Shown piece by piece: positions 9,195 through 54,551 of a stretch of 64,000 nt of DNA; the stretch's first letter is position 1; each line of letters begins with the position of its first letter. Below the pieces are notes generated by a model, which searched no databases, was not told the DNA's origin, and saw only the letters and a program-made list of their open reading frames with translations. The DNA lies in assembly GCA_008632985.1 (NCBI GenBank), contig QPGO01000022.1:682001-746000 (forward strand), given 5' to 3'. The position numbers and the translations under genes were made by a program. Source of the DNA: Psammoneis japonica (lineage: Eukaryota).

Positions 9195-9348
9195 AACCAA
9201 GTTTAATTCTACTACGCTACCTTTAGGTACTTCATTTTCATTTTTTAAAATCCTCTCTCTACCTACATATACCTTGAGAACTTTCTAGGGCTATAGTGAG
9301 TCATTTTCCATTTTCAGCAAAGGAATAAATCTCAAACTACTAATTCAA

Positions 9349-20481: not shown

Positions 20482-21474
20482 CTAGCTTGACTTGTCCTTG
20501 ACGGTTGATGGCTCAACCTGTTTACTACGAAGCAACGTCTTAATTCTCTGAGCCTCTTCACCAACCTCCTCTTCAAGGCTAGGAATATTACAGTCCAGCC
20601 ACTTCATCAAGCTGCTCTTTCGGTTTACATCTGCAAGAGTGGTCATCGGGTCTCTGTGCACCAACGCTGACATGCTTCGCTGAAAGAAATTGCGGACACA
20701 AACTCCCCGCTGATCCTCTGCTACTTTATCTCTGCCAACCTTATCTGTGGCAGCAAAGCAGGCAGAACTGTTTTGATTTGTTATATGCGATTCCTCTTTC
20801 TTCTGTTGAGACGAGATATTAAGTGCGTTCAGTTGGCTGTGTAGTTCGGATATCTCGTAGTTTTTCCCTGTGAGTCTCTTGGAAAGGACGATATTCTCGC
20901 TTTCGAGTCTCTGAGATTGCCGCCGGACATCCTCTAAGTCACGCTGTAGATCTGGCACTTCTTTTAGAAGCTCGACAAGTACAGCATGCTCCTGTCGTAG
21001 GAGGCTGACGGCTTCGTTGACGTCGATGTATGACAAATCCACGCTTGCATTCGTAGAATTCAAATCCGTGGAGTTGAGAACCTCGCCCCAGTCGTGCGCT
21101 TCAGAATCATCGGGCTTCACAATTTTACTACTTTCAATTTTTACTTTTGCAGCAGGATGCTTGAGCAGCCACCTTTCTACTCGGTCCACGACTTCGGTCT
21201 TTGCAATGCCAGATTTCATCCTAGATTTTTGTGTCGAAGGTGCCATAGTTCTTCCTAGATTCGTCAGCCTTGGTCTCCTAGGAGGATCAGGAGGGGGGTC
21301 ATCAGGTCTCTTAACTCTACGAGATACTGTATGCATCTCAGGTGATGTCGTACTGTCGGGCATCTCTCTCGATATCACACAGGTTATCAACCGCGGGTGG
21401 GTCTCTGTTCGTTTCCGAGCCCTTCTGCTCTTTGAACAAGAGTTGCTGTTATTATCGTTATCAAATAATGCCAT
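20482..21474 (-). CDS. Hypothetical protein with central coiled coil
   Basis: 330-aa ORF with disordered N-terminus and coiled-coil segment (LQRDLEDVRRQSQRLESEN...). Confidence 0.6.
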   Translation of the reverse strand: MALFDNDNNSNSCSKSRRARKRTETHPRLITCVISREMPDSTTSPEMHTVSRRVKRPDDPPPDPPRRPRLTNLGRTMAPSTQKSRMKSGIAKTEVVDRVERWLLKHPAAKVKIESSKIVKPDDSEAHDWGEVLNSTDLNSTNASVDLSYIDVNEAVSLLRQEHAVLVELLKEVPDLQRDLEDVRRQSQRLESENIVLSKRLTGKNYEISELHSQLNALNISSQQKKEESHITNQNSSACFAATDKVGRDKVAEDQRGVCVRNFFQRSMSALVHRDPMTTLADVNRKSSLMKWLDCNIPSLEEEVGEEAQRIKTLLRSKQVEPSTVKDKSS

Positions 21475-22057
21475 TATCCACTATCCGCAAAGTGGTATGC
21501 TTGGATCGAACGTCATGATGAAGAACGCGAAGGCGGCGTACCGTACCGGTAGAGGAATAAGAGGATGTTTATGCTTTTTCTAAATGACCGAATTTTGAGA
21601 GATGAGTTTCGGTGGATTAAGATGGTCATTATGGGTTTGTCGATGACTGCTGACTTCGGTAGGTGATATGTGTCGACGACGATCACTCAAAACCAGTGTC
21701 ACTTTCATTCAATGCTGCGCCGCGCAGATACTGTACAGTAGCTTAGATTTCATTCGCGCATTACAATCCAGTCCGGCCTTCATGCCTGAGAGAAAGGTGA
21801 CACTCTCCTCGTCCTCAACTGACGTTGCGAAGAAAAAATCCAGGTGGCGGCTCAAATAATGAGTCGTGTAATTTTTAGGATTGATTTGATTTGTAAAAGC
21901 CAGGTATCTCCTACTCTAGAAAGTGTTCGTGCCCACGTTTGGCACCGGGTTTAGCCGAGCTTTCTTGGGCTTGAGGGGCTCACTCTACACTACCCGTTTT
22001 GTAGCTACACTCCCTCTAGAGAGAGCCGATCGACTCACTGCTGACCAAATCGTGCCC

Positions 22058-22977
22058 TCAATCGCTAGAATAGCTGGATGATACCGATAACGATCTACTT
22101 CTACGTTGCTTCTTTTTCCGCTTTTTCGAGTTCTCTTTTCTTCCCTCCTCTTTTCTCATTCGTTTAGCACGTTTCACCCGATGTGATTCTTCTCGCCTAC
22201 GTCTTCGCTCTTCCTTTTCTCGTCGTTTCTCGTCACGAGCCTCTTTGCGTTTCCGTTTCGCCGCTTTCCGTTCTTCTTTTGAGATGCCGTGGTCTTTCTT
22301 TGTGTCTGACTCATTCTTTGCTGGTCGTGGTATTGCAAACAAATCTCTGCCGTGGTCGATACTGTACTCGTTGGCCAATTCCTTGCCATCATACGCATGG
22401 CCAGGGTCAGCTCTAATGGCTTCGGCTTCTTCCTTTTCAAGAACTTCTTTTGGCAAACGATATTTTTCTACATGATCGACACGGATCGATCTGCCGAGAA
22501 TCTGAATTGATAAGAAATAGGGCACCACGCATGACGCATGACGTGAGGAAGGCGTAAGAAAACATGAAAGGCGTGATCTGAATACAAACCTTGGAGCCGG
22601 CGAAATTGTCTACCGCGAGAATACAGCTTCTGGCATCCTCGTATTTGATAAAAGCGAACCCACGCGACTTCCCAGTCGTTTCCTCCCGCACTAAATTGAT
22701 ATCTTCAATCTGAACACAGGTGGCAACTGACTGGTTAGATGTCCGAAACTCGAAAGTATTTCAAAATCTTGCTTGTTAATAAATTCAACACATATCTTAC
22801 CTCTCCAAATTGTGAAAAGATACAGATAGTGTCACCTTCTGTGAGCTGTAGTGGAAGGTTTCCAACATAACACCAAGCAGAATCGGCGTATTTGGCATGC
22901 CACGATGCGGACGTGCCGACGGATCCATTCTCAAGCTCGGCGGCATTTATCCGCTGGATCTCAGCAATTACATTCAT
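22058..22977 (-). CDS. RBMX2: RES-complex RRM protein RBMX2/Ist3/Snu17, 3 exons
   Basis: SWHAKYADSAWCYVGNLP..LTEGD....FSQFGE, TGKSRGFAFIKYEDARS..LAVDNF, ILGRSIRVDHV, basic C-terminal tail. Confidence 0.95.
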
Positions 22978-23601
22978 TGTAGGGCTACGTAAGCTTAGAC
23001 AGTGGATTGGAAATTACTCGAGTCTCGCACGGATTTTCATTGTTGGATTCGACAGCTTCTATCTCGGTGTTTTATTACCGTACCCAGTGCGACGAAGGGC
23101 AAGCAGAATTTTTGTGTGGGCCTACTGAGAGTGAAGAGCGCAGAACGCTGCGGCAGTGGATGACAGACTTTCTTTTGACACCTGCTGTCCATCCCCTGCA
23201 GAGTGGGGTAAATAAGGTTACGCGCTCCGTGTGGAGCATTCCGTTCCCAAGAAGGATTTTTCGTAGCACAGCAGTTGCGAATTGGTTCCTCCTCTTTTAG
23301 GTGGAACTCTCTAGATCGAAGTCTGAAACCGAACGATTTTGGATTGCCGCCCTCGCTACTGTCAGAAAATAGAGCCATGACGATTGCCTGCACCAATCAT
23401 TTTGCTGCATTTTGCGCCGGGCGTTCGAACCAATTGTGAGATGTGACGGTTGTTTCGGTGCGCACTTTTGCGCGACCCACGTGACATGACCAACATGCGT
23501 TATGCAGTGCGTGGTGCTGGTTGTTTTGCTTCTGACCGTTCTGTCTTCTGTGGGGTTTCACGAGTTCATCTGTGCACATTGCTGTTGTCTAATTTGAGGT
23601 G

Positions 23602-23790
23602 CGGTGGCTTGAGCGAAAGTGCAATTGTGCGAAATTTACGCATTGACATGGTTGTCTTTGCTGAACAGTTGGTTGCAACTTGCGCCCATTCCAACATTTT
23701 TCCACGGTGGCTTAACTGAAAGTCTGAGTGCACGAAATTTACGCATTGATGCGGTTGTCTTTGCCAAACAGTTGGTTGCAACTCTCGCCC
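23602..23790 (+). repeat. Imperfect ~103-bp tandem duplication near the left end of the element
   Basis: cggtggctt...gaaatttacgcattga...gttgtctttg...aacagttggttgcaact occurs at ~23602 and ~23705. Confidence 0.75.
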
Positions 23791-23796
23791 TTTCCA

Positions 23797-24273
23797 TCAT
23801 TTCTGTCCGTGTTTGTTCCGTAGGATCCTTGCTTGCTCCTTCTCCTGCTCTGTTGCTCCCGATTCTTCCAGCTCCTTCTCGGTGAAAAACCTCCCACCAG
23901 TCGGTGGTGGTGCTGCCGCCCATGCTGCCTTTGGCTCCTCCATGGTTGAACCATCCCTGGGTGCGACCGTTGTTTCCACATGATGACTGTCCGCTGTTGT
24001 GTTGTCTTGCACAAGTGCAGAAGTGACATCAAAATTTCCCAAAGCAAGGTCAAACGCCGCTCTTGCTTCTTCCAAGGCAATCTCCTCTTCGTCTTCCTTG
24101 TTCATCAATGACTGAAGAAGTTCCGCACGTGTCTGCACCTTTTTCTTGTCCTCACCAGTTTTCTTTGGCTCGTCTGCCTTCTTTGTTTGTTGTTGCAAAT
24201 CCATGTTTTCTCCATTGCTGCATTTTCTGTGACGGTTGCGTTCGCGTTTCTTGGTTTGTTGGTTAAAATCCAT
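23797..24273 (-). CDS. Small charged hypothetical ORF inside the element
   Basis: 158-aa E/K/Q-rich ORF with ATG start; may be non-functional. Confidence 0.35.
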   Translation of the reverse strand: MDFNQQTKKRERNRHRKCSNGENMDLQQQTKKADEPKKTGEDKKKVQTRAELLQSLMNKEDEEEIALEEARAAFDLALGNFDVTSALVQDNTTADSHHVETTVAPRDGSTMEEPKAAWAAAPPPTGGRFFTEKELEESGATEQEKEQARILRNKHGQK

Positions 24274-24346
24274 TCGACGTTGTGTGACGTACGTGTGGAT
24301 TGCTGCGCATTGTGCTGATCTAATCGAAACATTTTATTTTACGAAA

Positions 24347-27300
24347 TTACCGCATTTTTACGGTTGGGGTCGCCAAATGGTTGTGCAGTGGTTGACATCC
24401 CAATCTAATGTTTGCACACTGCATTGACATTTCTGCGCACTGTTGCTGAGAAAAATGCGTGGCGCTTCTCTCCTTCATGAGTCTTGTCAAGGCTTCGCAG
24501 CCTTCTGGGACCTTGCATTTCCGGAGGTCCTTGCTCAGTGGCTTTCGCATGAACAGCCCTTCTCTGGTCTTTACTCTGGAGAGCACAACATGCACCCAAT
24601 TCTGAGTGTAGCTCCAAGAGTGTACAAACAACTGCGGGACTCCACTCCCTTGCAGTTTGTGCCCTGCAGTGGCGTTGTTGATGACAAACGGCAGCTGGGT
24701 TGCCTTCAGTTGGAAAGTGTGCCTTTGTTTGTCGCCTTCTTCTAAAATTAGGCTGGGCTTGGCAATGCAAGCCCTGAAAGCATTTGTTTTTGGCTCAACT
24801 AAAAACTTCGCGGGGTCGATGCTTTTGTTGCAGTGTTCCAATGCAACGTGGTCTACCTGGCTAGCAAGTGCAGCAGGAATGCTGATGTTGTTGTCTAGAG
24901 TTGCCAGTCTTGGTTCCTGTCCTGGTTTGAGAACGACCTTGTCAACAGTGGCTTGCGTTCCGTTTGCTTGACCGTTTGCTGCATTTTTGTTGAAAGGTGT
25001 CATGACTCTGCATCCTCTGTAAATTCGTAAGACTGGATCCATTCTTCCTGACTGCATGACAACGTCTCCTTCACCACAGTTGTTCCAGAAGCTGTTGTGA
25101 ACCGGAAATGGTTGGTAGAGTCTCGTGCCATTCTGCACCTGCAAGTCGTCACTGAAAATCAACATTGAGTCAAGCACGTCTCCATCTCTTCCATGCAGTG
25201 TTTCTGCTCTTTTTTTGAATGGGCCAGTGTCAATTGCATCTCTGTCCTCATTTGCGCACGCAGCACAGCGGAGGTCACTGGGCAGATCATCTTCGTTCTG
25301 AACTGCTCGTTCGTTGATGCACTCTGTGTCGTCAACTGCAATCTTGCCAGTGCGGAATCTCTCAAGCAGTTTTCCCCATGATGGATCGTCTTTAAGCCTG
25401 TGTACACCATGAAGTTCTATGTGGCAGTTGATCCACTCGTGAAACTCGGGACACACATCTTTGTGCAGTGGTTTCACTCCTTTTCTGACTGGTTCTAGTT
25501 GCCTGAGGTCAGCTGCAAAAACAATGTTCACACCACCGCACGGCTTGCTTAATTCGCCCTTCAATGCCGTTAAATTCTCATGGAGTTTTTCTAGTTCTCT
25601 CTTGCTTGCAAAAGAAATCTCGTCTACCACCAAAAGTCTCGTGTCTGACCATGCTTCAATTTGCTCTTTGGTCATTTGCTTTCTTCTCATGAGGCATGCA
25701 ACTCGGTGGATTGTGTCCCCTTTGAGAACAGTCGCAGCCACTCCGGTCAGTGCAGTTGTTCTGATTGTGCTTGTTGTGAACGGCTGCTCAATGAGCGAGC
25801 AGCACTCTCTTCCACATTCCACGACGAGGTCCATTGTGGTTGATTTGCCACTTCCACCTGCACCATGTAAAAAACACACAAGTTGCAATGTTCTGCGTCT
25901 TTGCACTTCCACGAGTTTCTTCAATCGGCGAAGGTTTGTTGCGAATTCGTGTCTGCCATTTCTCCTGTTGAGTCCATTGCGTGACGTCTCGTCTTGAAGA
26001 GCGTCTTGGCAGCAAGTGAGCACAAAGGTTCCTGCTAGAATTTCAAAGGCACGCTGCTGTTGCCTGTCCAGTCTTGCTTTCCTAGCCCAGTCTACGATGC
26101 TTGCTGCAGATCCGTTTGCTTGACGCACATCGACGTGTTCTTCCAAACCTGTCACATCCTCAAACGACCTTCTTGTTCTTTGCGTTCTAGTCAGCATCAC
26201 TCGAACAATGTCGTCTCTTGACAGTGGTCTGCTGTGGATGTGTTGTTGCACTCCTTCATTCTGGTCTTCGTCATCGGTGTCATCGCCGCCCTCTAGATTC
26301 TCAAAAAGTTGTCGTTCATTGACCTGGCTTTCCTCGTTTGGTGGGTCAGTGTGCATGTCTGCCAAGCATTTGCAACCACCCATGTGCAAACCTTTCTGTC
26401 TTGCACGTTTGCCGCTCAAATGCGCAGGAACAACTGCTTGGTCGCTCAACCCAATGTCATCGTCTTCTGTCTGCTCTGCCATTTCTTCCAAGAGTGCATC
26501 CAGCAGTTGACCTTGAACGGCGCCTGAAAGACCTTCTTCCTCGTCACTTTCGCAACAGTCAAACGCAACGTCAGCAGGTTTAAATTGCTCCGTCTTTCTT
26601 TGCAGATCGTCAGATGTACTTTTGAGACGAAGGCAGTTGGACTTAGCATCCTGCAGGTTCTGCAAGAAGTTCAAATCTTCCTCTGCAACAACACCGGCTG
26701 CTGCGGAGAGTTGGAATTCACGCAGACATGCATGGGTCATTGGTTTGAGTTCCGTCATTGTTCTGCAAGGCTCAAACAAGGCCAATGCCAACTTGCAGCA
26801 CAATTCTTTGTCTGGTGTTGTCGGTTGCTGCGGATCCATGAGGCAACTGCCAAACTTGGCTGCATCGGGAAAATCATGCTGAAGTGCTTTTGACAATCGC
26901 GGTTGCTGTCGCTGTTTGACACCTTGAAGAAACTTGTTCTTCGTTGAATTGCAAGATGGGTGCCTGTGCGCTCTGTTGTCGAACATCATCATGCCGTGTT
27001 CATTTTTCCTTGTGTTGCGAAGAACTTCGCACTCACTGAAAAACGCAAACGGACTGAGATTCTCCAGTGCTGTTGGACGACATGGGCAGTGCAAGGCCTG
27101 GCATTGGAAGAACGGTGTGTCGCCAAAATGGGCTACAGTCGCAGACACTTCGTCTCTTTCCAGTGTGCTGACAATGTCTTTCAAAGGGCACCATGCGGTC
27201 AAATGAGATTCGATGAAACGGCTTCCGTTCCTTGTTGTGTAAGACGCAAGTGGTGGTCCAATGACGTTCGTCTTGTCATGCGAGCAAGCACCCCACATGA

Positions 27301-30065
27301 GACGTCTGATTGCTTCCGATGCATCAGATGTGTGTTTCCGTAATTCCGTCGCTGTCCTGTTCGTAGTGTGAAGCACTTCGTCGTACGATGCAGTGTCATC
27401 TTTCTGGGTGTCTTTTAGGATGTGCTTGATCGTGCATTGAGCAGACGGTCCAGGCATCAATGAAGCAATGTTTGTGTTGCATGTCAGTTTTGATCTGCTT
27501 GTTGCAGGGCACGACACGTTTTGAAAAGCATCGCACTTTCTCCTCTTCGGAACAACTTCCTTCACGTGCCAATGCGCAAAAGTTCCATCCCAGCTGAACC
27601 ACTTCATCTGAGTGTCATCTGCATTCCTTGCCAAATTGTTTGGACACGAAGCAGCTGGTTGCCTGTGACGGCAGTCACCTGTCTGAGCTCCTCTCGTTTC
27701 CTTTTCCTTGACTGCGTGTCCAGTTCCTCGTGTGGGGTTTTTTTACGCATTTTACGCAACTCTGCGCATTTGGGAAAACACGACTTCGTAATGTGCATGT
27801 GATGGTTGTAAGCTGCGTCCAGCATGCATGCCTCTGTTGTCCCTTGCGGACCACTTCGCTGGCATTGCACACACATTGCTTTTAGTCGCTTTGCATGGTT
27901 GTCTGGACAGTGAGTCAGGCCAGGCACACGGTGCCGTGACTGTAAAAAGCTTTCTACAAACTCGACATTTGTCCAGTGCTTGGCGCAGTGACGACAATGA
28001 GCAAACATTCCGTTCTTCGACTGCTGGCCGTCTCCATGCCTCAGGTTTCTTGGCTGTTGGTTGTCCACTGCTTTTGGAGAGGTGCGACCATTTTTGGTGC
28101 TGTGCAGTCATGATCGAATGCTTCACGCAACGCGTTAGTGCTGAAGTCCTCGCTGCAGATTAATTCCGTGCTGCAGATCTTCTGAACTGTGTTGGCAAGG
28201 TGCTCAGCACCTTCGCATCGGATTTGTCTTGTTGGCGAATGCAGTTTCTCTCTTGCATTGTTGATGATGCGAACCAGATCTGCATGTGTCCGTGCACTGT
28301 CAGACGTCCCTGCTCCTCAACTGCGGCTAAAAATGTGGCTGGCCTGTCAATGTAGAAGTTAAAGTTTTCTCTTGGTTGGTTGGCACTCAGATCCCAACCC
28401 ACTGCCTCTTCCATTGCAATGTCAAACAAGCACTCGAATACAAAGGCTGTTAGACCGGGAAACTTTAGACGCAGTTCATTACGTTGCTCAGCCCTGCCAG
28501 CAAGAATTTCATCCGTCAGTTGTGTCACGTCTTCGTTTGGGTCCAGGATGACACCCGAGTGCAGTTGTGCAAGAAACGAATTTGCATCGTCCGGACTGAC
28601 GGTTAAGAAAATGCCACCCTGACCAAAATGATGCTGACAAGTTTCGGCCTTTCTCCTCATTTTCTTTGCTGCTTCGTTGCTGTGTGGCAGAGACGCAGAT
28701 GCAACGTCGAGTGCACGCAAAAAGTGGTGCCCGAGTCCACAATTTCTTCTCTCGCCCAAGTTGCGATCACAAACAGCTCCATCCACATCGTCCACTGTCA
28801 GTTCGTTTGCAAACTGTGCAGCCTGATTCTTGTCCCTGACTTTCCACCCTGCGCTCTGCAGCATCCTTTGCTTCATTGTCAAGTTGTGGCATGTTAAAAC
28901 GAAGAGCTGCTCGTGGAAGTGAGGCTGGGAAATCCGTGCTGAGTGGTCGGCACAGTGTGCAAGGTTGGTGCCATCTGCAAGACTTCCGTCTTTCTTCATT
29001 CTCGTCTCATTGATTCCTCCTCTGCCAAAAGGAAACTGCAGCAGACACGCGCCAATGAAGTTGTTGCCTTTGAAATCACTCGCAGATTCTTTAGACAACT
29101 GTGCTTGCACCTCTAAATCAAATCCGTTGGCAGTGGCTTCATGCACAAGATCTTTGAAGCAGTCCAGGTTGCGCTGACCACCGGTCGCAGGAGACATGGT
29201 TCCATCAGGAAAGCAAATGTGAAATGACTCTGAGGTCTCAATGTTGCATTTTCTCCTTCTTCTTCGCTGGTGCTGTCGCCAAGTGCGGGATTCCGCAGAT
29301 TGCGCCCAACTTCGTCTAGATTTGTCTGTTGGCACACCCACTCTTGGTCATGGCACAACAGCCATTCCATCGCCCTCAGCATGCAGTGCGTCCAATTCTG
29401 TTCTTTGAACGCGCAAGTTGTCTTTGCTCCGGAGTCATCTTTCCAGTCATCAGTGCAATCACATTCTGATGTAAATTCAGTGCGTCGAAGTGCACAACAG
29501 TTCTTACGATGCTTTGCATCTTGACTTTGTAGCGTGTCAGACTTCCCTGAAGCTTCTTCTGTTTGCCGCCAAGGCAACTGAAGCAGCATCCGCATGTTTT
29601 CACTGGTGTGAGCATTGCCAATTCTGCTTTGGTTAGAGACAACAGTTCATGCGGCGGGGTGCCGAAACAGCAGTTGTTCGCCATCGCGTACATTGGCATG
29701 ACGGCTCTTCCCAGGCTTCTCCGGCATTCGCTGCAGCAAGTGAATCCGTCGGCGCGTCGTCTGTCTTCCTGTGCTGCGTGTTGGGCGCGGGGAGAAAGCA
29801 GCAGGTCTTTGATCCAATCAGCATCTTCATGCTCTACAGTGCAGCAGGACTTGAGACGATCAGATGCGCTGTTCCAGTCTGAAGGAGTGAGTGAGTTTCT
29901 TGCTGATTCCAATGTTTTGAGCGGCAAGTGACACACTTCTCCAGGTTTCAGCAGAACGTCACAGACTGAACATGCGTGTGGTCTAAATTCTCCATCTCCA
30001 TGTAGACAAAGCATCTCAAACTTTCCATTGATTGCGTTGCAAACACAGGAGTTGACCTCGTCCAT
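24347..30065 (-). pseudogene. Helitron Rep-helicase (DUF6570-like region + HUH Rep + PIF1 helicase), frameshifted and hypermutated
   Basis: C..C...MPMYAMANN..FG.PP.EL..LT.AE; QFPFGRGG; FLTVSPDD; VEEQGRLTVHGH (HUH); QCTIKH at the YxxKY position; GAGGSGKS (Walker A), VVDEISF, FAADLRQLEPV, ATAGHKLQG, HVVLSRVKT. Confidence 0.9.
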
Positions 30066-30149
30066 TTTAATTTAAGCTGACACTTCAACTCAACAGATTT
30101 CAAGAAGTTGCTCAGCAAAAACAGTTGTTTTTTCAGTGGGATCACCGTG

Positions 30150-30790
30150 AAGCTGCGATCGGTGCCATCCAATCACCACAGCGATGTGTGTTTTGTCACC
30201 ACCTGCGGCACTGTGACTGGTGTCGTCCAGTCACCGCAGTTGTTCTGTCCAGTTGATCAACGAACCGCGTCGGTGCCACCCGTTCACCGCAGCGCTGTGT
30301 CATCTTCTCACAACCTGTGCAATCAGGTCGCTGTGAGCAGTCACCGCAGCCGAGTCAATCAGTTGCTTGACGAACTGCGTCGGTGCTGTCCGATCACTCC
30401 AGTGTTGTGTCGTGTTCTCACAACCTGTGCGATCAGGTCTCTGTGAGAGCTGCGACTGGTGTCATCCAGTCACCGCAGCTGAGCTTGTGCGTTGTCTCAC
30501 AACCTGCGTTACGAGGTGCAGTGCTGTGTTGTTTGCTCACAACCTGTGCAATCAGGTCGCTGTGAGAGCTGCGACTGGTGTCGTCCAGTCACCGCAGCCA
30601 AGTGAATCAGTTGCTTGACGAACTGCGTCGGTGCTGTCCGATCACCGCAGCGTTGTGTCGTGTTCTCACAACCTGTGCGATCAGGTCTCTGTGAGAGCTG
30701 CGACTGGTGTCGTCCAGTCACCGCAGCTGAGCTTGTGCGTCATCTCACAACCTGCGTTGCCAGGTCACTGTGAGAACTGAGAACTGCGAT
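30150..30790. repeat. Composite tandem repeat array upstream of (or within the N-terminus of) Rep-helicase
   Basis: Recurrent cacaacctgtgc(g/a)atcaggtc.ctgtgagagctgcgactggtgtcgtccagtcaccgcag and aatcagttgcttgacgaactgcgtcggtgctgtccgatca blocks. Confidence 0.85.
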
Positions 30791-30975
30791 CGGTGTGGCC
30801 CAATCACCGTAGTTGGATGCTTTTTGTTTCCCTTTGCGCAAAGGTTCTGTCACAAAAAAGTGAGACGAAAGTGTGCCTCTTTCACCTTGACGGAAGAGTG
30901 ACGTGTGCGTTCCTCCCACGTCCTTCTTCGCACCAGACGTGCGACATCCTGCTGGGTTTCGTCGATGTTGAACAT

Positions 30976-31077
30976 CCCATGGGACAAGATTTGGATCTTG
31001 TTCAAGTTGTTTCGACCATCTGCTCTGAACGTTCCATGGGGCAAGATTCGGATCTTGTTCAAGTTGTTTCGGCAATC
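30976..31077. repeat. 2 x 57-bp direct repeat (KQLEQDPNL.PW on the minus strand)
   Basis: ccatgg..caagatt.ggatcttgttcaagttgtttcg occurs twice, 57 bp apart. Confidence 0.8.
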
Positions 31078-31505
31078 TTGGTGGTGGGCGCAGCTTTGCG
31101 CAAATTCCGTAGAATCACGTTTCAACAAGTGGCGGGGCAGTTGAGTTAGTCGTGTGGGCAATGACAATGCGATTGACGTCATTCGTGTTTCCAAAGTGCG
31201 CGCAAATCCTCCAAATGGGTGATGGGCCCACCTAGCTACGCGGCAGTAAGGCTGAAATGCACACGAAGCACGGACGGAATTGCACGTGATGCCGCATTTT
31301 CAGCAAACTTGGTGCGACTTTGCGTGCTCCGATCCTAGCACCTGTTTTGTTCAAATTGAATCCATGCACCACTTGCAAGTGCTGACACCTGGAAGGTTGC
31401 CTTGTTGCAGTTCGACGTGTTTGGATCTAATTGCTGATGTTGCCAGTTCTCCTTGGTATGATGTGCGCAGCTCTGCTGGGTCTTTCTTGGCACTTCTGGA
31501 CGATC

Positions 31506-31569
31506 GCACTTTTTGTTCCCACAATTTCTCTCCGACTGCACTTTTTGTTCCCACAATTTCTCTCCGACT
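31506..31569 (+). repeat. Perfect 2 x 32-bp tandem repeat just before a cargo ATG
   Basis: gcactttttgttcccacaatttctctccgact twice. Confidence 0.9.
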
Positions 31570-31575
31570 GATTCG

Positions 31576-32447
31576 ATGGCACGCAAAAGAAACACAACGA
31601 CCTCCCCGGCTGCGAAAGCCAAAGTCGCCGAAACCAAACATAAGAAGGCAAAGACGAAGTTTTCTGATGCTCTGTTGAAGAAACTAAGTCCGCCCCGCAA
31701 GACCAACGGCTTGACCGACGACGACCTTAAACCGGAAGACCACCTTGCCAAGCACGGGTTCAAGCTTTCCAAATCCGCTGGTTCTGACGATGGCAGCCAT
31801 TCCGATGAGGACGCCCTGCTGCGCTGCGCCACCGTCACTGTCGGCCGCAAGAAAGGCGTCGTTTTTCGTCTTCAAGCCAAGAATCCCCTTTCAACCAATG
31901 TTTGGTCGGAGAAGGTTCTGTTTGATGACCTTCGCAGCAGGACTCCGTGGGCGGTTCAAGTCGGATTCCACCCTTACGCTGGCAGGTGGGTTCACGAAGG
32001 CGAGTTGCAGACGAACGCCAAGAACTGCGCCGTGCGTCTCTTCTTCATCTTCCTCGAAGAAGTCCCAACGAAGCTAAAGTGCACGGCCTCGGGAAGTGCA
32101 TTGCGAAGCAGCTCAACGATGACCCTGAGAACAACACCGAGGTCTTCGTTGACGACGACTTCTTCTGGATGAAGGATGCTGTTTGGTCCGAAGTGATCAG
32201 CAACGAGGCGGCGATTGCCGAGCTTCAGAAGGAAGGTGGTCAGTTTCACATCGGTTGGTGTGCCCAAAACAAGAACTTGCTTCACAGTTGCTTCTACGAG
32301 GGGTCGTTGCCTGTGGAACTCTGTCGTCTCATTGGAGCTCCGGCAGAAGAAGCTGGAGAAGAGGCCGACGATGATGTCGAGCTCAACTGCGAAGTTGACC
32401 TGAACGTCGATGACGACTTGGTGCTTCAGGACAGCGACGAAGACTGA
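31576..32447 (+). CDS. Element-borne unknown protein (basic N-terminus, acidic C-terminus), one frameshift
   Basis: MARKRN... in ORF 31513..32172 continues into ORF 31947..32447 if one C is added at gaagtcccaac (~32066); strongly codon-like third-position C/G. Confidence 0.6.
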
Positions 32448-32668
32448 GTTTTTTTTTTTTTGCCGGTGTTGTGTAAATTTGCACATGTTTGGAGAACTAA
32501 GTGTCGATTACAACTCAGCTTTCCTCTGTCTCTTCAAGTGTGCACCATCTCCGACGATAACTTTACGTTACCGCGAAGCGATGGCGAATTGAGTGGAGTA
32601 ACTAGCGTGTCACGTCTAGTGCAGTGACAGTAAAAAAACAGTCCAGTTGAGTTCTCAAGTAAAATTGG

Positions 32669-33520
32669 TTATTTCGCGACGGGCAAACACTTCCGTTCCA
32701 AGTGTGTCGGAGTGGGACGTCGCATGTGCTGGCTGGTTGACTGAGAAGTCTCCTCTTTCTTGGTGTGCTTGTGGAAGACGAGATGTTTCACGTCTCCGCT
32801 GTGCCACAAAAAGTCGCCATCATGGTAATCCGCCGTGAACGACTCGTACATCCACTCTTCCGCGTACGACGCGAACAGCGGATCTAGCGCCACCATCACG
32901 GTCCCAGCACGACACAACTTCGAAAGCATCGCCTCTGCCTTCTGCTGTGTGTTCTTGTCGTCGACCATGCGGGAGTTGCAGTTGTTGAAGAACACCTTGA
33001 GCCCTTTCTTTTTCCACAAAGGAGCCAGCCCCTTGTCCAAGAATGACTTGTTGATCAACTCTAACCCACCGTTCGAGCGAAGGCCAGCACGATGAGCCCA
33101 ACGTGCAGCCTCTTGGTGACGATCGTGGTCGGCCTCGATGCTCACCACGGTGCAACGGCGACGAAGTAACTTGAGCCCGATGCTGGGTCCGGCAACTCCC
33201 CCGCCCATGTCGACAGATGTGTCGCAGGTGTGATTCACGCCAAGAAGGCGTTCGTTCAAAAACACTTCGCTGCTCAAAGCGAAGCCAACTTCGCCGCCGT
33301 GCGAAGATCCGCTTCCGTCTCCGGAGACACGCCTGCTCTGGAACGCGGAGTCCGGAGCCGTTTGATGACAAAACTCCCCAACACTTCTGTGACGATGGTT
33401 CATCGTATCCAACCTTGTGGCAACATCAACCTTGCTTGCAGCGGGTTCGACCAGACGTCGCGTTTCCAAACCAAACTGTGACGTGCGCAGAATGCGTAAA
33501 ATTGCCGTCGCGCCCTCCAT
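32669..33520 (-). CDS. DOT1-like class I SAM-dependent methyltransferase (element cargo)
   Basis: Ordered motifs HGGE (cf. YGE), VDMGGGVA (motif I), VSIEAD, KSFLD (cf. GDFL), VFFNN (cf. IFVNN), AGTVMVALDPL, then W and FHKH (cf. YY). Confidence 0.6.
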   Translation of the reverse strand: MEGATAILRILRTSQFGLETRRLVEPAASKVDVATRLDTMNHRHRSVGEFCHQTAPDSAFQSRRVSGDGSGSSHGGEVGFALSSEVFLNERLLGVNHTCDTSVDMGGGVAGPSIGLKLLRRRCTVVSIEADHDRHQEAARWAHRAGLRSNGGLELINKSFLDKGLAPLWKKKGLKVFFNNCNSRMVDDKNTQQKAEAMLSKLCRAGTVMVALDPLFASYAEEWMYESFTADYHDGDFLWHSGDVKHLVFHKHTKKEETSQSTSQHMRRPTPTHLERKCLPVAK

Positions 33521-33837
33521 GCACGCGAAATTTTCAAACGCGGCGTGCCACCTCTACCTGCGCATGGAGCGACGCATGAAGTCATTTTAAACAGACATGT
33601 AGACGCGTTGAAATAATAAGACGCCTTCAGGCGGTAAAATTTGTTTTGAATCTCGACCTGCTTCTCATCGCTGCCGTACTTGCATGTCCGTGTAATTCAA
33701 ACGCACGAGCTGGCACGGCACGTGACGCACTTCTACGCGAGAACTCGCACTGAGATTGCCGTGGGATGATCCTCCCTCTGCGGAGACAACAACAACGCGA
33801 CAACACTTCCGTCATCACATTTTGAACACATTTCAAA

Positions 33838-35283
33838 TTGAGACACACCATGTCGCAACTACCTCGTGCCTCGCTGCGTCATCCTGCCAACGACAAGCAC
33901 TTGTCGCGATCGAGTTACAGCCGGTCTCGACAGTGTGGGGGTTTGGGACGTGCAGCTCGCAGCCCGACAACAAGCAAGTGCTTCTCGCGATTAGGTTTCG
34001 ACCCCACTCCCCTGGAGTCCGCCGGTCCCTGTCAACAGAGTTTTGCTTTGGGTGCTCTTGAGGCACCGGAAAGCAGACACATCTCTCGATTAGGTTTTGA
34101 CCCCACTCCCCTGGAGTCCGCCGGTCCCTGTCGACAGAGTTCTGCTTTGGGCACTGTTGAGACGACGGTGACAGTGTCAAGCAGCGGAACGTTTGCCGGT
34201 GAGTTCGCACACACGTTCTCTGTGAACACCGCATTGTCAATGCGCACCAGGATGTGCGAGCACGTGTCAAGGGCTCAACCGCCACTTCGCAAGGCCCACC
34301 GCAGCCGCAGGCGAATCCGCAGCCGCGCCAGCAGGAAAACATCCAAGATTGCTCGCCTCGTTCCACTCGCACCGTGCGCCACTGAGAGTCTCTCCATGCA
34401 CTGCGTGGCCAACCGCACTCCAGTTTGTGACGGCGACTACACTCAGCCTGCACCACCTTGTCTTGCTGACTTTGACTTTGCCGGATTGGCTCCTCTGGTC
34501 GTCTGTGACCCTGTGCTCGATCTGAAGCCTTTCTTTGGCTTGGACGGTTGCCGCTGCGACAACACCTGCACCCTGCTGCCACGTTCTGCTGTGGTGTTCA
34601 GCTCCCCCAACCCAGCAGAACTAGTTGCTCAGCACCGAGCGCTCGAAGCACTAGAATGCTGCACCGCCCAGTCCACCGTGCGCGGCAAACAACGTGTTGC
34701 CTTCATGGAGACTGACAGGAGCAAGCATTCCACGATTGGCCTGGCTGCCACGAGAGACGCTCGAATTTCTTGCAAGCAGCCTGGCACAGCCGACCAACAC
34801 ACTCACCACCTCACCAGACTTCTTTCACGCATGGAGCACCTTGTCAATGAGTGCGTGGACTGTGCCATCCTCAAGGGTGTCGCTTGTGTCAAAAAGTTTC
34901 ACAACTGGAAATCCCTGGTGCGGTCAGATGGCATTTTCTCCTCTCTGGCGGCTGGGCGCAATGTCTTCCTCAACGCCCATCGGGACGAGGACTTCTTCCT
35001 GTCAGTGGTCACCGTGGTGGGAGTCCCTCCGTCCGGCAGCCACACCATGAATGACGGGATTGTGGTGTGCTTCTGCTTCCCTGCCAAAGGCATCTCTGTT
35101 GCACTCCGTCTTGGTGATGTCATCATTTTTAACCCCACCAAGCACCACTGCATCTCCAGCAGGACAAACTCAAACGACGAGTTCTTCTGCGTGTCTCTCC
35201 ACCTGAAGAGTGCTGCAGTGGGCAAGAACAACAATTCAATCCCCCTTTCTCTAGAGGAAGAGACCATTCTCAGGCGACTGTGA
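33838..35283 (+). CDS. 2OG-Fe(II) dioxygenase, TET/JBP-like (element cargo)
   Basis: NAHRDED (HxD), FCFP..GI.VALRLGDVIIFNP.KHH (distal His), VSLHLK (cf. SLxY); in-frame 99-bp duplication at 33989/34088 in the N-terminal part. Confidence 0.65.
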   Translation: MRHTMSQLPRASLRHPANDKHLSRSSYSRSRQCGGLGRAARSPTTSKCFSRLGFDPTPLESAGPCQQSFALGALEAPESRHISRLGFDPTPLESAGPCRQSSALGTVETTVTVSSSGTFAGEFAHTFSVNTALSMRTRMCEHVSRAQPPLRKAHRSRRRIRSRASRKTSKIARLVPLAPCATESLSMHCVANRTPVCDGDYTQPAPPCLADFDFAGLAPLVVCDPVLDLKPFFGLDGCRCDNTCTLLPRSAVVFSSPNPAELVAQHRALEALECCTAQSTVRGKQRVAFMETDRSKHSTIGLAATRDARISCKQPGTADQHTHHLTRLLSRMEHLVNECVDCAILKGVACVKKFHNWKSLVRSDGIFSSLAAGRNVFLNAHRDEDFFLSVVTVVGVPPSGSHTMNDGIVVCFCFPAKGISVALRLGDVIIFNPTKHHCISSRTNSNDEFFCVSLHLKSAAVGKNNNSIPLSLEEETILRRL

Positions 35284-35488
35284 CAGTGCAAAATAACTTG
35301 CTAAATTTGTGTAAATTTGCTGACTTTCTGCACTCAGGCGACTGTGCAGGTGCCTGCTAATTTGCCAGATGTGCGCAAATTTACCGACTTTCTGTTCTTC
35401 CTCGTCCCCATTTTTCAAACCACAACTGGGGCTACGCCTTTCCAACTGATGCTGCAGTTTCGCTGAAAAACACCAACACACTGTGCCA

Positions 35489-36973
35489 CTAATTTACAGA
35501 GCAAACTACACGGCAGACATTTTGCCAGACGCAGAGCTTCTCCTCCCTGACTTGGGGAGTGGGCGCGATTTCTTCTTCCGATTCATGGCACCCGACGTCG
35601 CCTTCCTCTTCTTCTTCTTCTTCTCCATTTGTCCAAATTGCATTTGCAGAGAAATTCCTCCCCGGGCATGATTTGCTTCGTGACTGCCAAGCACCCGTCA
35701 TTGTAGAACTCGCAGTTGTTGTCCGCGTGTTGGCTTGCCTTGATCTTCTTCTTGTCCTTGAACAACTCGGTGGCATCGTTCACGTGGTGCATTCCGAGGC
35801 AGAGTGGATGGGAATTCTTGTTCCCTGGACCACTAAAATCAAGCGGTTTTGGCTCCACTGTGACGCAGCAGCCCTCGCTGTCACGGATGGTGGAGCAGCA
35901 CACGCTGTGGTCTTCTCCAAACTTGCTGTCGTGGTCGTACCACGAGTGGCTCCTCGTCGTTCCGGGCACCCTGGGGCCCACGTAGATTCCAACCGCACTG
36001 CCTTTCTGGAACTGGCGCAAAGCAAAAAAACCAACACCTGCGCCCCTCCGTTGCGATGCGTGCAGCTCGCCCACCTCCACCTCCTTGGGGCCTGCGGAGC
36101 GAACGGACTTTTCAAGGCAAAACAACGCAGGTTGGATGACACGGCGCCTCATCCAAATGTGCACACTTCTGCACTTACTCTCTTCACAAGGTGGACCAGT
36201 GCGAGCAACCACCCCGCTTCGAAAGCCTCGACGGCGGTCTTGAACACTTCGTTGCTCTTCGGCGTGAGTCTGGGATGCCCCTCTCGCCGACTTCCATGCG
36301 GTGCCTCCACACCCACTTGCAGTGTTCGCCGTGAGCATTCGCGACGGCTTCAGGGTCGCTCCTGATGCACCCCAGTTCTCCCAGCGCGGGGCACCAGAGG
36401 TCGGGATTGTTCGGCGCATCCTTCATCAGGCACATGGACTCCTGGAAATTGTCGGATTTTTCGTGCCGCAACACCCAGTCCCACAAGTCGAATGACGGTT
36501 CGGTGGGGTCCGGAAATTGATTTCCTTCTTCTTCCTCTTCCGCCGTTGCTTTCGCGACCCCTTTGGCGCGGGCTTGGCTGCCTCCTCGCTTTTGCCGCTG
36601 CAAAAAGACAGGACCTCCGGTTTCACAAAGGTGGCCTGATCACCCACCAACTCGATCTTGCACCGGCCTCAAGCAGCTGCTCGGCGGTGTGACCCAGCTG
36701 CTGTGCTTCATTCCAACCACAAATTTGAAAGGTTGGCTCCGGCGGCTCGGCTTTCTCCCTCTTTTCAGTTTGGGACTGCGCCGGCTTCTCCGACATCCTT
36801 GCGCGTTCGGACTCGACGGACACACCCTCGGCACTTCCCTCGGCACTTCCCTTGGCACCGAGTGCAGTCATGGCAACTGCCGCCGCGCCTTCGGTGCCCG
36901 TGAGTTCTGCCGCGGCTTCTGGAGCTGTCACATCCTCTGCTTTGCCAGATGCAACGATGTTGTCCTCCGCCAT
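35489..36973 (-). pseudogene. SET-domain protein (element cargo), frameshifted, terminal Tyr read as Cys
   Basis: GAGVGFFALRQF.KG..VGIYVG, PLCLGMHHVND, IMPGEEFLCKCN; N-terminal pieces in ORFs 36623..37213, 36426..36650 and 36184..36603. Confidence 0.72.
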
Positions 36974-37637
36974 TCTGACGCCGTGATGACAGAGGTGCAC
37001 TGACTGCTGTGTGTGGTGTGCTGTGTTCCAGCCGTTGGCGATCCACATCCTTCTGCGCGCGTAAACGCACGACACTTCGTACCGAATTCGACGTGCCTGA
37101 CGCACCCTACACTGCCTGCCGCGTGCTTCCGACTTCCTCAACGTCCCGCCTCCACCACTTTCAACTTGTCCTCGGGACGTGGCGCGTCTGCACCTGTCTA
37201 CGTCTGTCTGCACTACGGCACTACAGCGCCCTGCATCAAAACTTCATTAATGTTTGTTTTTTGCTTTCTTTTCCTTTTCTCTTCTTCTTCCATCTGGCTG
37301 GGAGGAACTGCTGGATAGCCTGGGTATTTTATGAAATGCTGTAGAAATCTGTTTGTCACACTAGTTTGCGTACTTTAGGCTCTAGAGAGTAGCTCTAGCC
37401 TTAGGTCATGCCGCGACTCTCCAATTCGTGCATTCCCGATCTTGCTCCGTGGGAATATCGTACGCTCCATCCCCGTCGTTTGGCATCTTCAATTGCGCAA
37501 AGAATCTTTGACACGTCCAATCCAACCGACACCCATGACCAACTCGGACCAACAATAAGATGGCTGCGTCCAGTCTGCAGCAAACACCGGAATATCTATC
37601 TTCACGAGAAGATGATGGGTGCACCGGTGCCCCATAA

Positions 37638-39378
37638 TCAACTGTACATCACTATCCTGCTGGCGTTGCCACACCATGGCATCCATGTTGGTCCCATTTT
37701 TGTTTCGACGAACCCTTTCCATGGGCACGACGGGTCGTCTGATGCTTGTGGAACACCTGTAGCCTTGTACATATCAAGCTTTTCTTGGAGCAGTTTCAGA
37801 ACTTCGGGGTGTTGTTTAGAAACGTCGTGAAGCTCCTCGGGATCTACCTCTAGATCAAACAGCAGGTACGGTGTGACGTTTTTCTCGTGAGGCGGATCTC
37901 TCCCATCAGGTCGCCCGCCATCACCTTCTATAATCTTCCACTTCCGAAAACGAAGAGCAGGACCGTGCACACCAACAGAACTGTCGGTTCTACCAATGAA
38001 CAGTTCCTCTCTGGCAGATTCTCCTCCACGAAGCGCTGCCAGCTGGTCAACACCATCTACAAGGTTTTTCGACGAGACGCCCCCAGCAATCGATGTAAGA
38101 GTCGGAAGCCAATCAACACAGTGGAATAAATGCTCCATGGAAGTACCTCTGGAAATCCCCAAGGTTTTAAGAGCTGGGCCTGAAAGCATGCCATCTCCTG
38201 TTGTTCTGACCAAAGAAAATCATGAAGAACGAAGCAAAGGAACGGAATAAGGTCGACTTGCAAAAAAATGTGTGTCAGAAATGGAGCGGAGTATTTGTAA
38301 GAACCAAAACGCACCCTCCCTGCCAAATGGTACATTTTCCACCCCGTTTTGGGTAATTCGATGATCCCTGCACCGCGCATGTTTCGGTTGGACCTCCATT
38401 GTCTGTCGTATAAATCACGAGTGTGTCGTTCCAAAGACCATTTGCTTTGAACGAATCAATAACTTGCCCTAGTGCTTCATCCGCAGCTGTAAGCATTCCG
38501 GCGTACACTTTGCGCGAAACTGGCCAGTCCATGTCTCTGTATTTATCAATATAGGATTTTGGGACTTCGGTTGGGGCATGCACCGCTTGAAACGCCAAGT
38601 ACAAAAACAAAGGACCATCGCTCGCGCTGTAACTCTCGATTCTGCGTCGGGCCTCGTTTGCAAACAAAGGTGAAGAGTAGTTCCCTCTTGCGTCGATAAT
38701 CTGCGAACAGTGCGGACCGCAATTTTCCCCTTCGTCAAAACGAAAATCGTATCCCTTCTCACTTTCTGACATATGCGTAAAGTAATCTTGAGAGCCCAGA
38801 TAGAACCCATAAAAAGACTCGAATCCTCGAAAAGTAGGTGTCTGCTCCCACCTTGCGTGGCCTGCGTGCCATTTTCCTACCGCGTGTCGAGTGTATCCAG
38901 CACTGCCCAGCACTTCGGCAAGAGTTTCATCGTTCAGAGGCAAGCCAACAGTCGATTTCGCGGCAATCCAATTGTTAATTCCAGTGTGTAGCGGGTATTT
39001 TCCAGAAAGAATAGCCGTCCTGGTTGGACTACAGGAGGGCAAAACATAATAGTTTGTTAAATACTTCCCTTGAAGCGCAAGAGAATCCGCAGTCGGCGTT
39101 AGGATTCCAGTTCCGTGCATTCCTAAATCATGGCTCCCGAGGTCATCCTTCAACGTTGTCATCGTGAAACAAAACGGATGAGACTCCAACAACACATTCA
39201 ACATCGGATGCAATTTCAGGGGATGGATACGCACCATAACAACAAAGAGAATATGAGGTTTGTAACAAGTGCAGCTTGTGAATACGAGTGAAATAATGAC
39301 ACTCAAGAGCTGCGTGGCTCTATTATGGGTACCGGCATTCGACGCCAACATCACGCTATTGCTGTGCCCATTGTGCAT
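37638..39378 (-). CDS. Arylsulfatase (ARSB-like, formylglycine-dependent)
   Basis: PHILFVV-DDLG (with an in-frame intron), CSPTR..ILSGKYP, GYTRHAVGKWH, AFQAVHAP, TDNGG, RGGK, DWLPTL, LFDLEVDPEE. Confidence 0.93.
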
Positions 39379-39437
39379 CGGAGATAGTCTAGGCCACCTA
39401 CTCTACGTAGTAGCAGGGCCCTAGCTAGGCCCTACTA

Positions 39438-40217
39438 CAAGTAAAAAACCGGTCTGTCCTCTGCTTTTTGGTGTCTTTGTAAAAGTCGATTTTGTTTCCA
39501 AAATCGATGGGGTTTTCACTATACAATGCTTCTTACGTCTTCTGCCATTGTCAATTGACATGTTCTCATGCCTGTGTTCACCAGAGTCACGGTTCTGAAC
39601 GCCAAAACTAGTGTCGCAAGAGGGGGCTTTTTTTGCTCCAAGAGGACAGACCGGTCGTCAGTAGAATTCTACGTGGAAATGTACCGAGAAATTTACAAAG
39701 TTTTTTTGCTCGCTTGTGGCCATCGTCTCTTGCAACGGCAGCATGGTAAGTCCATAATACACGCTCGTATCGAATTATATGGGCCCATAAGCTATGATTG
39801 ATTGCTGTTTTGCTTTGTTACTCGCACTGTGTATGCAGGTGTTTGTCACTGGTCATCATTCATCATGACACATGGTGCAACTTCTTGTTGTCGAAAACTC
39901 AACAAAACGCAGCGCGATACAGTGTTAAAAAATATTAAATAATGAAGATAATTAATGAACGACAATCTCTGTAAAATTTCAGACGGTGCATTTTTTTAGA
40001 AAATGGCGATGTGCCGTTTTTAGCCCCCGATTGCGCTATGATGCAACATTCTTTTGTCCCGCTGTTTTCACCATGATCTCTATTGACGTTCTAACTGAAG
40101 TTTGTAGGTTCGGTTTGGATGGCAAACAATGGGAAGTTACTCATAGAGTTGCTTTACAAAGTTTGCTCTTCCAAGAGGACAGACCGGTCGGAAGAGGACA
40201 GACCGGTTTTTTACTTG
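39438..40217. mobile_element. Non-autonomous TIR element (Tc1/mariner-type MITE), 780 bp
   Basis: Perfect 25-bp TIR CAAGTAAAAAACCGGTCTGTCCTCT / AGAGGACAGACCGGTTTTTTACTTG flanked by TA on both sides (39436-37, 40218-19); extra ccaagaggacagaccggtcg copies at 39638 and 40171; no transposase ORF. Confidence 0.88.
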
Positions 40218-49593: not shown

Positions 49594-49680
49594 GAAGTTG
49601 TGGTTGCAGAGACATGGAAAGGTCGACGCATAATCAAATTTTAAAATGACAGTTGGATTTGCGGCAGAAAACCAAGCAAA

Positions 49681-51252: not shown

Positions 51253-51365
51253 GGTGAGAGCGCAAACTGCTGTACCGGGTACGCTCGCGCAGCGCACGAA
51301 AGATTGCTGTTGGCTTGGATGGAACGCGCGAAATGTTATGTACGTGCGTGGCTGGCCGGGTTCGA

Positions 51366-51814
51366 CCCCATGTTTATGTGTTCTTAAAATCGATAGTGGA
51401 CAAATCGACCCCTACCATAAACTCCTGGTAGATTTGTCCACCCCATGTTTATGTGTTCTTAAAATCGATAGTGGACAAATCGACCCCCACCATAAACTCC
51501 TGGTAGATTTGTCCACCCCATGTTTATGTGTTCTTAAAATCGATAGTGGACAAATCGACCCCCACCATAAACTCCTGGTCAATTTGTCCACCCCATGTTT
51601 ATGTGTTCTTAAAATCGATAGTGGACAAATCGACCCCCACCATAAACTCCTGGTAGATTTGTCCACCCCATGTTTATGTGTTCTTAAAATCGATAGTGGA
51701 CAAATCGACCCCCACCATAAACTCCTGGTAGATTTGTCCACCCCATGTTTATGTGTTCTTAATATCGATAGTGGACAAATCGACCCCCACCATAAACTCC
51801 TGGTCAATTTGTCC
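51366..51814. repeat. Six tandem copies of a 75-bp unit, each with an internal inverted repeat
   Basis: Units start at 51366, 51441, 51516, 51591, 51666 and 51741; stem tggacaaatcgacc ... ggtagatttgtcca around a 16-nt loop. Confidence 0.97.
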
Positions 51815-51904
51815 GAACCATGCCGGCGCGCTTGCTAGTCCCCTATTACGCTACCGTATACCCGCCCTGACGCACATCATCACTGACCGGCCGTCTGACC
51901 TGAA

Positions 51905-54511: not shown

Positions 54512-54551
54512 GAAGTTGTGGTTGCAGAGACATGGAAAGGTCGACGCATAA

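Follow-up and report, generated by a model that had tools for sequence, protein, structure and literature searches.

A dead Helitron copy in Psammoneis japonica with a predicted TET/JBP-type dioxygenase gene and two methyltransferase-like genes

Helitrons capture genes, and those of maize and bats pick up fragments of host genes. Where transposons carry epigenetic enzymes of their own, these show how mobile DNA fights host silencing. For enzymes of the TET/JBP type this has so far been documented for the DNA transposons of fungi, Helitrons included: the text of Kojima (2025; PMC12730594) describes TET/JBP genes kept in 11 lineages of fungal transposons, including Helitron1 and Helitron2, and proposes for them a role in escape from methylation-based silencing. 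Repbase Reports cited in the same text record SET genes on two kinds of Phytophthora transposon, HarbingerS and MuDR. In dinoflagellates, as the text of PMC11572971 has it, divergent TET/JBP enzymes make 5-hydroxymethyluracil (5hmU) on repeats, preferring TA and TC. Here we describe a repeated element on contig QPGO01000022.1 (assembly GCA_008632985.1) of the eukaryote Psammoneis japonica, in a stretch of 64,000 nucleotides (nt; positions 682,001 to 746,000 of the forward strand) that we call the window and number from its first letter. The element holds a Rep-helicase gene on the minus strand (24347-30065) and, on the 5′ side of that gene, a cassette of open reading frames (ORFs) in alternating orientation. 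An earlier note on this DNA had read the cassette as a mobile module of three epigenetic enzymes (TET/JBP-like, DOT1-like and SET) and a fourth ORF, and its placing of these ORFs directly 5′ of the Rep-helicase, on alternating strands, is borne out (Table 1). We consider it probable that the locus is one dead copy of an autonomous Helitron family of about 14 kb with tens of copies, that the accessory genes between the 5′ end and the Rep-helicase encode a TET/JBP-type dioxygenase (by structure), a SET-like protein (a weak assignment) and a class I S-adenosylmethionine (SAM)-methyltransferase-like protein (by motif), and that the dioxygenase, when intact, would most likely counter silencing.

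Like the TET-bearing Helitrons of fungi, the element in the window is a multi-copy Rep-helicase element with a separate gene for a predicted TET/JBP-type dioxygenase (PMC12730594). It differs from them in its host, a eukaryote that does not look fungal, where the text of PMC12730594 deals with fungi only and does not contain the words "algae", "stramenopile" or "diatom"; in its dioxygenase family, which lies below the Pfam Tet_JBP threshold (reached by none of 91 members and none of 24); and in having two methyltransferase-like genes besides. With the Phytophthora SET transposons, as cited in that text, it shares the combination of a DNA transposon and a gene of histone-methyltransferase type, but it belongs to another superfamily and its own SET call is sub-threshold. 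In the literature, supplements aside, we found no Helitron with TET, SET and DOT1 together and no TET-bearing Helitron outside fungi, and there was nothing relevant in PMC12477816 or PMC3145265. TET-bearing Helitrons as such are already published for fungi; what is new here is another host, a putative dioxygenase family that Pfam does not see, and the extra methyltransferase-like genes.

Within the cassette, ORF3 has homologues that align only from about residue 170 of its open frame onward. A word-based search returned three relatives (43%, 41% and 30% identity), and a profile search over 1.84 billion representatives returned 1083 clusters, counted at 50% identity, at E ≤0.001, with 307 at ≤1e-30. 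Alignment A2 joins the window ORF with 90 of the 152 family proteins, most of those longer than about 460 amino acids (aa), short fragments and two-stretch matches having been left out by eye. Built on these 91 rows, the AlphaFold2 (AF2) model of the catalytic domain has a predicted local distance difference test (pLDDT) score of 94.8 and a predicted template modelling score of 0.92. Foldseek matches down to rank 25 (ranks 1-11, 14-23 and 25, the others being further chains) are all CcTet, TET2, NgTET1 or CMD1, with E-values from 4e-8 to 5e-6. VIA-align matches TET2 with a Z score of 18.1 (253 residues, 3.9 Å), its best 16 entries all being of TET type with Z of at least 13.3 and the next, ABH3/FTO, standing at 11.6. 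A structure search independent of Foldseek puts TET2, NgTET1, CMD1 and CcTet first among 48,161 chains (Z 17.7, 14.9, 14.3 and 13.3; next 11.5), and across the searches the match to TET2 ranges over Z 17.7-18.1 and a root-mean-square deviation of 3.6-3.9. AlkB, FTO and prolyl hydroxylases are all more distant from the modelled fold than TET/JBP members are.

The likeness to TET2, NgTET1, CcTet and CMD1 runs over model residues 1-299 (Z 13.3-18.1) and takes in the His-x-Asp...His iron site; unlike these enzymes, to which it is 9-13% identical, ORF3 has no Cys-rich or CXXC part. In the family alignment, the iron triad H208-x-D210...H264 is present in the window copy, with H208 and H264 invariant and D210 conserved at 99%, and 50 of the 60 conserved columns are kept. 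Among conserved basic residues (K284 99%, R251 88%, R269 69%), K284 lies 20 residues past the last His and may stand in the place of the 2-oxoglutarate-binding Arg of TET enzymes. By modelled fold and active site, ORF3 is a TET/JBP-type dioxygenase. Searches of the Protein Data Bank (PDB) with the ORF3 sequence gave no meaningful match, and profiles A1 and A2 gave chance matches only; a Frizzled hit to the sequence (E 0.14) was set aside as a Cys-rich chance match.

The same dioxygenase family stands beside a Rep-helicase in a second, unrelated Helitron. One metagenome scan gave two loci, the contigs L001 (10.7 kb) and L002 (1.9 kb, no context). L001 has an intact Rep-helicase ORF of more than 1900 aa (DUF6570, Helitron_like_N and PIF1; 1661-7511). 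A gene of 626 aa comes after it in the same orientation, and the C-terminal domain of this gene's product is 41% identical to ORF3. The domain order DUF6570, Rep, helicase is that of the minus strand in the window, and the two Rep-helicases are only 26-31% identical (tblastn, E 1e-59 to 2e-74); the link between the dioxygenase family and Helitrons is therefore no one-off. TpA is not depleted in L001. Its Helitron, at 1661-10087, is apparently intact, and the long N-terminus of its TET-like gene is repeat-rich and of low complexity.

In the window, the Rep-helicase gene encodes the HUH Rep and PIF1-type helicase expected of a Helitron, split over several frames. Copies of the element were examined in the Logan contigs of one public run, X1, on window positions 21000-40000; this run holds 39% of the sampled words of the cassette, and what follows on copies refers to it. 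Contigs of the unique flanks end at 23308 and restart at 37301, at a depth of 55-71, and 3826 short contigs are placed between them, 1016 of which are at least 99% identical to the window, 1214 at 95-99%, 1186 at 90-95% and 410 below 90%. Summed word depth inside the element is about 1000-5954, or 30-100 times that of the flanks (summed contig depth not being copy number), with 2593-4915 in the bins of the Rep-helicase and 1869-4365 in those of the cassette. The element is thus present in many copies, as a Helitron should be. In other copies single bases are inserted in the Rep-helicase at 27677, 28088, 28265, 29245 and 29393. A single contig, with 30 letters on its shorter side, passes directly from 23939 to 36724, which fits a deletion derivative that keeps both ends of the element. 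From flank to flank the sequence acts like a single repeated unit, with the cassette about as abundant as the Rep-helicase. That the genes travel with the Helitron, as had been proposed, is supported by one continuous TpA-poor block and one repeat between unique contigs at similar depth, and the TET-like gene beside the Rep-helicase of L001 agrees with it.

The Rep gene and the cassette also share the mutational signature that the earlier note had ascribed to them. Depletion of TpA is unbroken from about 23.5 to 37.2 kb, in Rep-helicase and cassette alike, to an observed/expected ratio (o/e) of 0.20; in the flanking genes TA o/e is 0.60-0.66 and CG o/e 0.98-1.02. The ORFs of the element contain 0.3-1.1% Tyr (2.6-4.9% in flank genes), and when the Rep and TET-like proteins of L001 are aligned with the window, their 47 Tyr meet 1 Tyr, 9 Cys, 8 His and 10 Phe. 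In ORF3, all three conserved Tyr columns are changed, Y124 to His (CAT), Y238 to Cys (TGC) and Y282 to His (CAC), so the reading of TGY and CAY codons as former TAY holds. Per 1000 triplets, the block has 3.6 TAG and 3.7 TAA, against 10.5 and 7.9 in gene regions; the frames still look open because the same TpA process strips TAA and TAG stops. All genes of this copy are damaged and the copy is inactivated. Because it is dead, the window copy is no active module, and that part of the earlier proposal falls for this copy.

Copies differ from the window in a way that matches this signature. Transitions account for 386 of 458 differing places, and 23 of the 35 differing places listed inside the element set CG or TA against TG/CA. 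Four of these are adjacent TG-versus-CA double differences between copies and window, which suggest that an ancestral palindromic dinucleotide was hit independently on one strand or the other. Within the window only repeats bear the signature, which is made up of transitions at two palindromic dinucleotides. Other repeat blocks have TA o/e of 0.08 (17.6-18.8 kb), 0.11 (42-48 kb) and 0.06 (56-64 kb), and TG/CA is raised to 1.4-1.9 in the TpA-poor repeat blocks of the window. The three blocks that are not Helitron are also depleted in CpG (o/e 0.11-0.32); the Helitron, with TpA depleted threefold, keeps its CpG at 0.86, the cassette at 0.96. None of 30 ORFs in the other TpA-poor blocks matches a Pfam family at E 0.01.

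Table 1. Features of the Helitron and its cassette, in window coordinates
Feature	Position	Strand	Properties
Repeated element as a whole	23280-37330	-	Ends approximate, from contig breaks
TpA-depleted block	23565-37250		o/e: TA 0.20, CG 0.86, TG 1.42, CA 1.45
Rep-helicase, C-terminal part (PIF1-type helicase)	24347-27742	-	Open frame 1131 aa; Pfam PIF1 1.1e-13, AAA_30 2.3e-12
Rep (HUH) domain fragment	28160-29347	-	Pfam Helitron_like_N 9e-10; frame differs from helicase part
Rep-helicase, N-terminal DUF6570 part	29376-30065	-	Pfam DUF6570 5.9e-7
Spacer with tandem repeats	30250-31078		Between Rep-helicase and cassette; highest depth bin, 5954
ORF1	31576-32172	+	198 aa, basic N-terminus; no family match; may be a chance ORF
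ORF2	32669-33520	-	283 aa; putative SAM-methyltransferase-like gene (earlier called DOT1-like)
ORF3, whole open frame	33850-35283	+	477 aa
98-nt tandem duplication	33972-34168		Within nominal 5′ part of ORF3; probably non-coding
ORF3, catalytic domain	34357-35283	+	Predicted TET/JBP-type 2-oxoglutarate/Fe(II) dioxygenase; Tyr-to-His/Cys damage
ORF4	35583-36419	-	278 aa; SET-like, sub-threshold
Upstream ORF	36623-37048	-	141 aa, Met at 36973; possibly former 5′ part of ORF4 gene

A number of results weigh against the favoured reading, beginning with the enzyme assignments. Pfam Tet_JBP (PF12851) reached its threshold in none of the family members scanned and gave no match for the window ORF. 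It is the commonest weak Pfam hit (9 of 91 members at E ≤0.1, the best 0.0023, below the 34.9-bit cut-off); none of the 24 longer members, N-terminal domains included, has any Pfam family at E 0.001, and in all 115 members were scanned with no Pfam family at threshold. For ORF2, the DOT1 family (PF08123) was not recovered: neither ORF2 (E up to 1) nor its intact homologue P0004 (E up to 5) has a Pfam family, and PDB searches with the ORF2 sequence and with a profile of the two sequences gave no DOT1/DOT1L match. P0004 (244 aa), the sole relative of ORF2 among 1248 candidates, is matched over the full length of ORF2 at 53% identity (E 1.1e-73). Both proteins contain the Gly-rich SAM motif VD(L/M)GGGVAG followed by ...SIEA..., which at the level of motif has the form of the class I enzymes, where motif I precedes an acidic residue at the end of strand 2. 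With the profile of the two sequences, this region gives a weak match to the SAM-binding part of the O-methyltransferase 2gpy (E 0.11). An AF2 model built from the two sequences is unusable (pLDDT 33.8). An NN-aromatic motif after strand 4 of ORF2 may resemble that of DOT1. On its motif, ORF2 appears to be methyltransferase-like, at most a class I SAM methyltransferase, with DOT1 unproven.

ORF4 matches Pfam SET (PF00856) across positions 1-103 of the 105 in the model, at E 0.078 and with 13.8 bits where the cut-off is 22.4. Taken as a single family named beforehand, the match stands at about 3e-6; it is worth more than its library-wide E-value because the family was named in advance, and it remains sub-threshold. 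Among 1361 candidates, near-length proteins only, no homologue of ORF4 was found, and the PDB gave no match. SET domains have a conserved Tyr in a C-terminal motif and a motif of NH type; the ORF4 protein reads ...GEEFLCKCN... and ...GMHHVND..., and a Cys appears to stand where that Tyr is expected, in keeping with TAY-to-TGY damage. These features suggest, weakly, a SET-like protein. ORF1 has no match in Pfam, NCBIfam or the PDB; NCBIfam gave no match for any of six proteins. Scans of viral contigs with ORF4, A3 and A1 found no relatives, nor did scans of prokaryote genome contigs with A3 and the SET part of ORF4. Of the three epigenetic enzymes once proposed, then, TET/JBP stands by structure, SET is weak, and DOT1 was recovered neither by Pfam nor by the PDB profile search, nor from the unusable AF2 model.

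Further points on the same side concern the element itself. Helitron ends run 5′-TC ... CTRR-3′ with a 3′ subterminal hairpin, and insertion is between A and T without target duplication. Read by eye, the edges of the element do not clearly show the TC and CTRR termini, and neither of two candidate 3′ hairpins (z -0.55 and -0.67) folds better than shuffled sequence. An empty-site joint from about 23308 to 37301 is not among the joints listed. The 10.7 kb of L001 contain no relative of ORF1, ORF2 or ORF4, and the TET-like gene there lies downstream of the Rep-helicase, whereas that of the window lies upstream. No activity, expression or intact copy of the element was seen in this analysis, and no RNA data set was listed as holding words of the cassette.

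On a rival reading two or more repeats stand side by side or nested, the cassette deriving from another element or a repeated gene cluster and sharing with the Rep-helicase only a genome-wide mutation process that acts on repeats. Between the Rep part and the cassette, GC content (0.497 and 0.549) and CG o/e (0.76 and 0.96) differ, and the tandem-repeat spacer parts the two halves. The contigs inside the repeat are shorter than about 500 nt, too short to bridge the halves, none spanning Rep-helicase and cassette on one molecule. TpA depletion occurs on every repeat block of the window and by itself makes no tie between the halves. The TET-like and SET-like genes are absent from at least one copy, since 33574-37173 is skipped in one contig. 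Against such an arrangement, the transitions from unique to repeated sequence lie only at 23308 and 37301 with no unique sequence between the halves, the two halves have similar depth, the joint of 23939 to 36724 links both outer ends, Pfam scans of 31-37 kb found no transposase besides the Rep-helicase, and the unrelated Helitron L001 also has the TET-like family beside its Rep-helicase. We regard separate neighbouring repeats as unlikely.

Passive capture, in which the genes would be functionless passengers from the host and their open frames a by-product of TAA and TAG loss, seems to us improbable to a like degree. It draws on the known capture of genes by Helitrons, on the two- to threefold rarity of TAA and TAG in the block relative to gene regions, and on the long antisense ORFs that abound in this TpA-poor sequence. 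When 31101-37250 was shuffled 300 times with its dinucleotides kept, 39% of the shuffles had an ORF of at least 198 aa and 7% had one of at least 278 aa; ORF1, the fourth ORF of the earlier note, is therefore within chance and has no support as a gene. Three ORFs of at least 278 aa arose in 0 of 300 shuffles, which places the three long ORFs beyond chance. Against this, neither ORF2 nor ORF3 is a fragment, as each matches its homologues over the full length and ORF3 keeps most of its conserved columns. Between the two Helitrons, identity is 41% for the TET-like genes and 26-31% for the Rep-helicases, which speaks for long-term retention, and TET/JBP genes are kept in 11 lineages of fungal transposons (text of PMC12730594). 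Less probable still is that the TpA and CpG changes are base-calling errors of the assembly at modified bases in an element that is really intact. Two palindromic dinucleotides alone are affected, which is a curious specificity, and some long-read base-callers are known to misread modified bases systematically; yet the accurate X1 contigs carry the same TpA-poor sequence, matching the window at 97-99% inside the element at a depth of about 1000, with 3 differences in 2309 bases in the flanks, and the Rep-helicase has frame breaks as well.

For the favoured Helitron with accessory genes, the analogy with fungal TET-bearing transposons suggests how the cassette might work. The intact dioxygenase would oxidise methylated bases on the element's own DNA, and this oxidation would weaken methylation-based silencing of the element by the host. 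The two methyltransferase-like proteins may change the marks that the element bears on its chromatin or nucleic acid. In the window copy, a process of TpA to TpG/CpA transition would have replaced the conserved Tyr of all genes.

That process resembles the repeat-induced point mutation (RIP) of fungi in aiming transitions at repeats in a fixed dinucleotide context and ruining transposon genes. It is the opposite of RIP in direction, since RIP makes TpA from CpA, whereas the window loses TpA and gains CpA/TpG, with loss of CpG besides. Decay of CpG is an ordinary process; a repeat signature of TpA to TpG/CpA was not found described in the literature. The kept CpG of the Helitron may mean either that the element is young or that it is less CpG-methylated, and a plain explanation by youth would combine a fast TpA process with slow CpG decay. 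As the cause of TpA loss, oxidised thymine at TpA is a guess. It can be extended to a genome that marks repeats by 5-methylcytosine (5mC) at CpG and by 5hmU or 5-formyluracil at TpA, the latter made by this TET/JBP-like family, with both marks decaying to TG/CA like RIP in reverse, the dioxygenase of the Helitron joining the conflict and its kept CpG being the footprint of its own removal of 5mC; we give this scheme little chance of being right. The window shares with dinoflagellates a divergent TET/JBP family tied to transposon control, and TpA, a preferred target there, is the dinucleotide lost here (text of PMC11572971). In the account of PMC11572971, however, the dinoflagellate enzymes are host genes that silence transposons, and a link between 5hmU and TpA loss is only conjectural in the window.

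Together, the Helitron of the window and that of L001 suggest for this strategy a greater age or a wider spread than has been described. With 1083 clusters invisible to Pfam, the ORF3 family also implies that many "hypothetical" proteins of marine eukaryotes may be DNA-base oxidases. If TpA-specific decay of repeats is real and general, it would be a new footprint of genome defence and, for such organisms, a cheap marker of silenced DNA that is readable from sequence alone.

Some smaller features complete the locus. The end of the cassette was formerly put at 36973 because the Met of the ORF at 36623-37048 stands there. At 36566 and again at 36661, most other copies have one base more than the window; adding these bases in a script lengthened that ORF to 305 aa, still separate from ORF4, and the joining of the two was given up. 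Short tandem duplications (units of 53-180 nt, 76-96% alike) lie at 30250-30765, 30969-31078, 33972-34168, 35269-35394 and 23602-23802, that is, in the spacers between Rep-helicase and ORF1 and between ORF3 and ORF4, below the Rep-helicase, and, for one, between ORF2 and the TET-like domain. The 5′ end of the element is about 300 nt past the 3′ end of a minus-strand sulfatase gene (37301-39378; Sulfatase 3.1e-42, Sulfatase_C 3.7e-5). Elsewhere in the window, 47959-51268 and 52876-56133 form a 4.9-kb tandem duplication of 96-100% identity with an MFS transporter gene on the plus strand and a SAICAR synthetase gene on the minus strand, and a tandem array of 75-nt units (51287-51886) lies between its copies.

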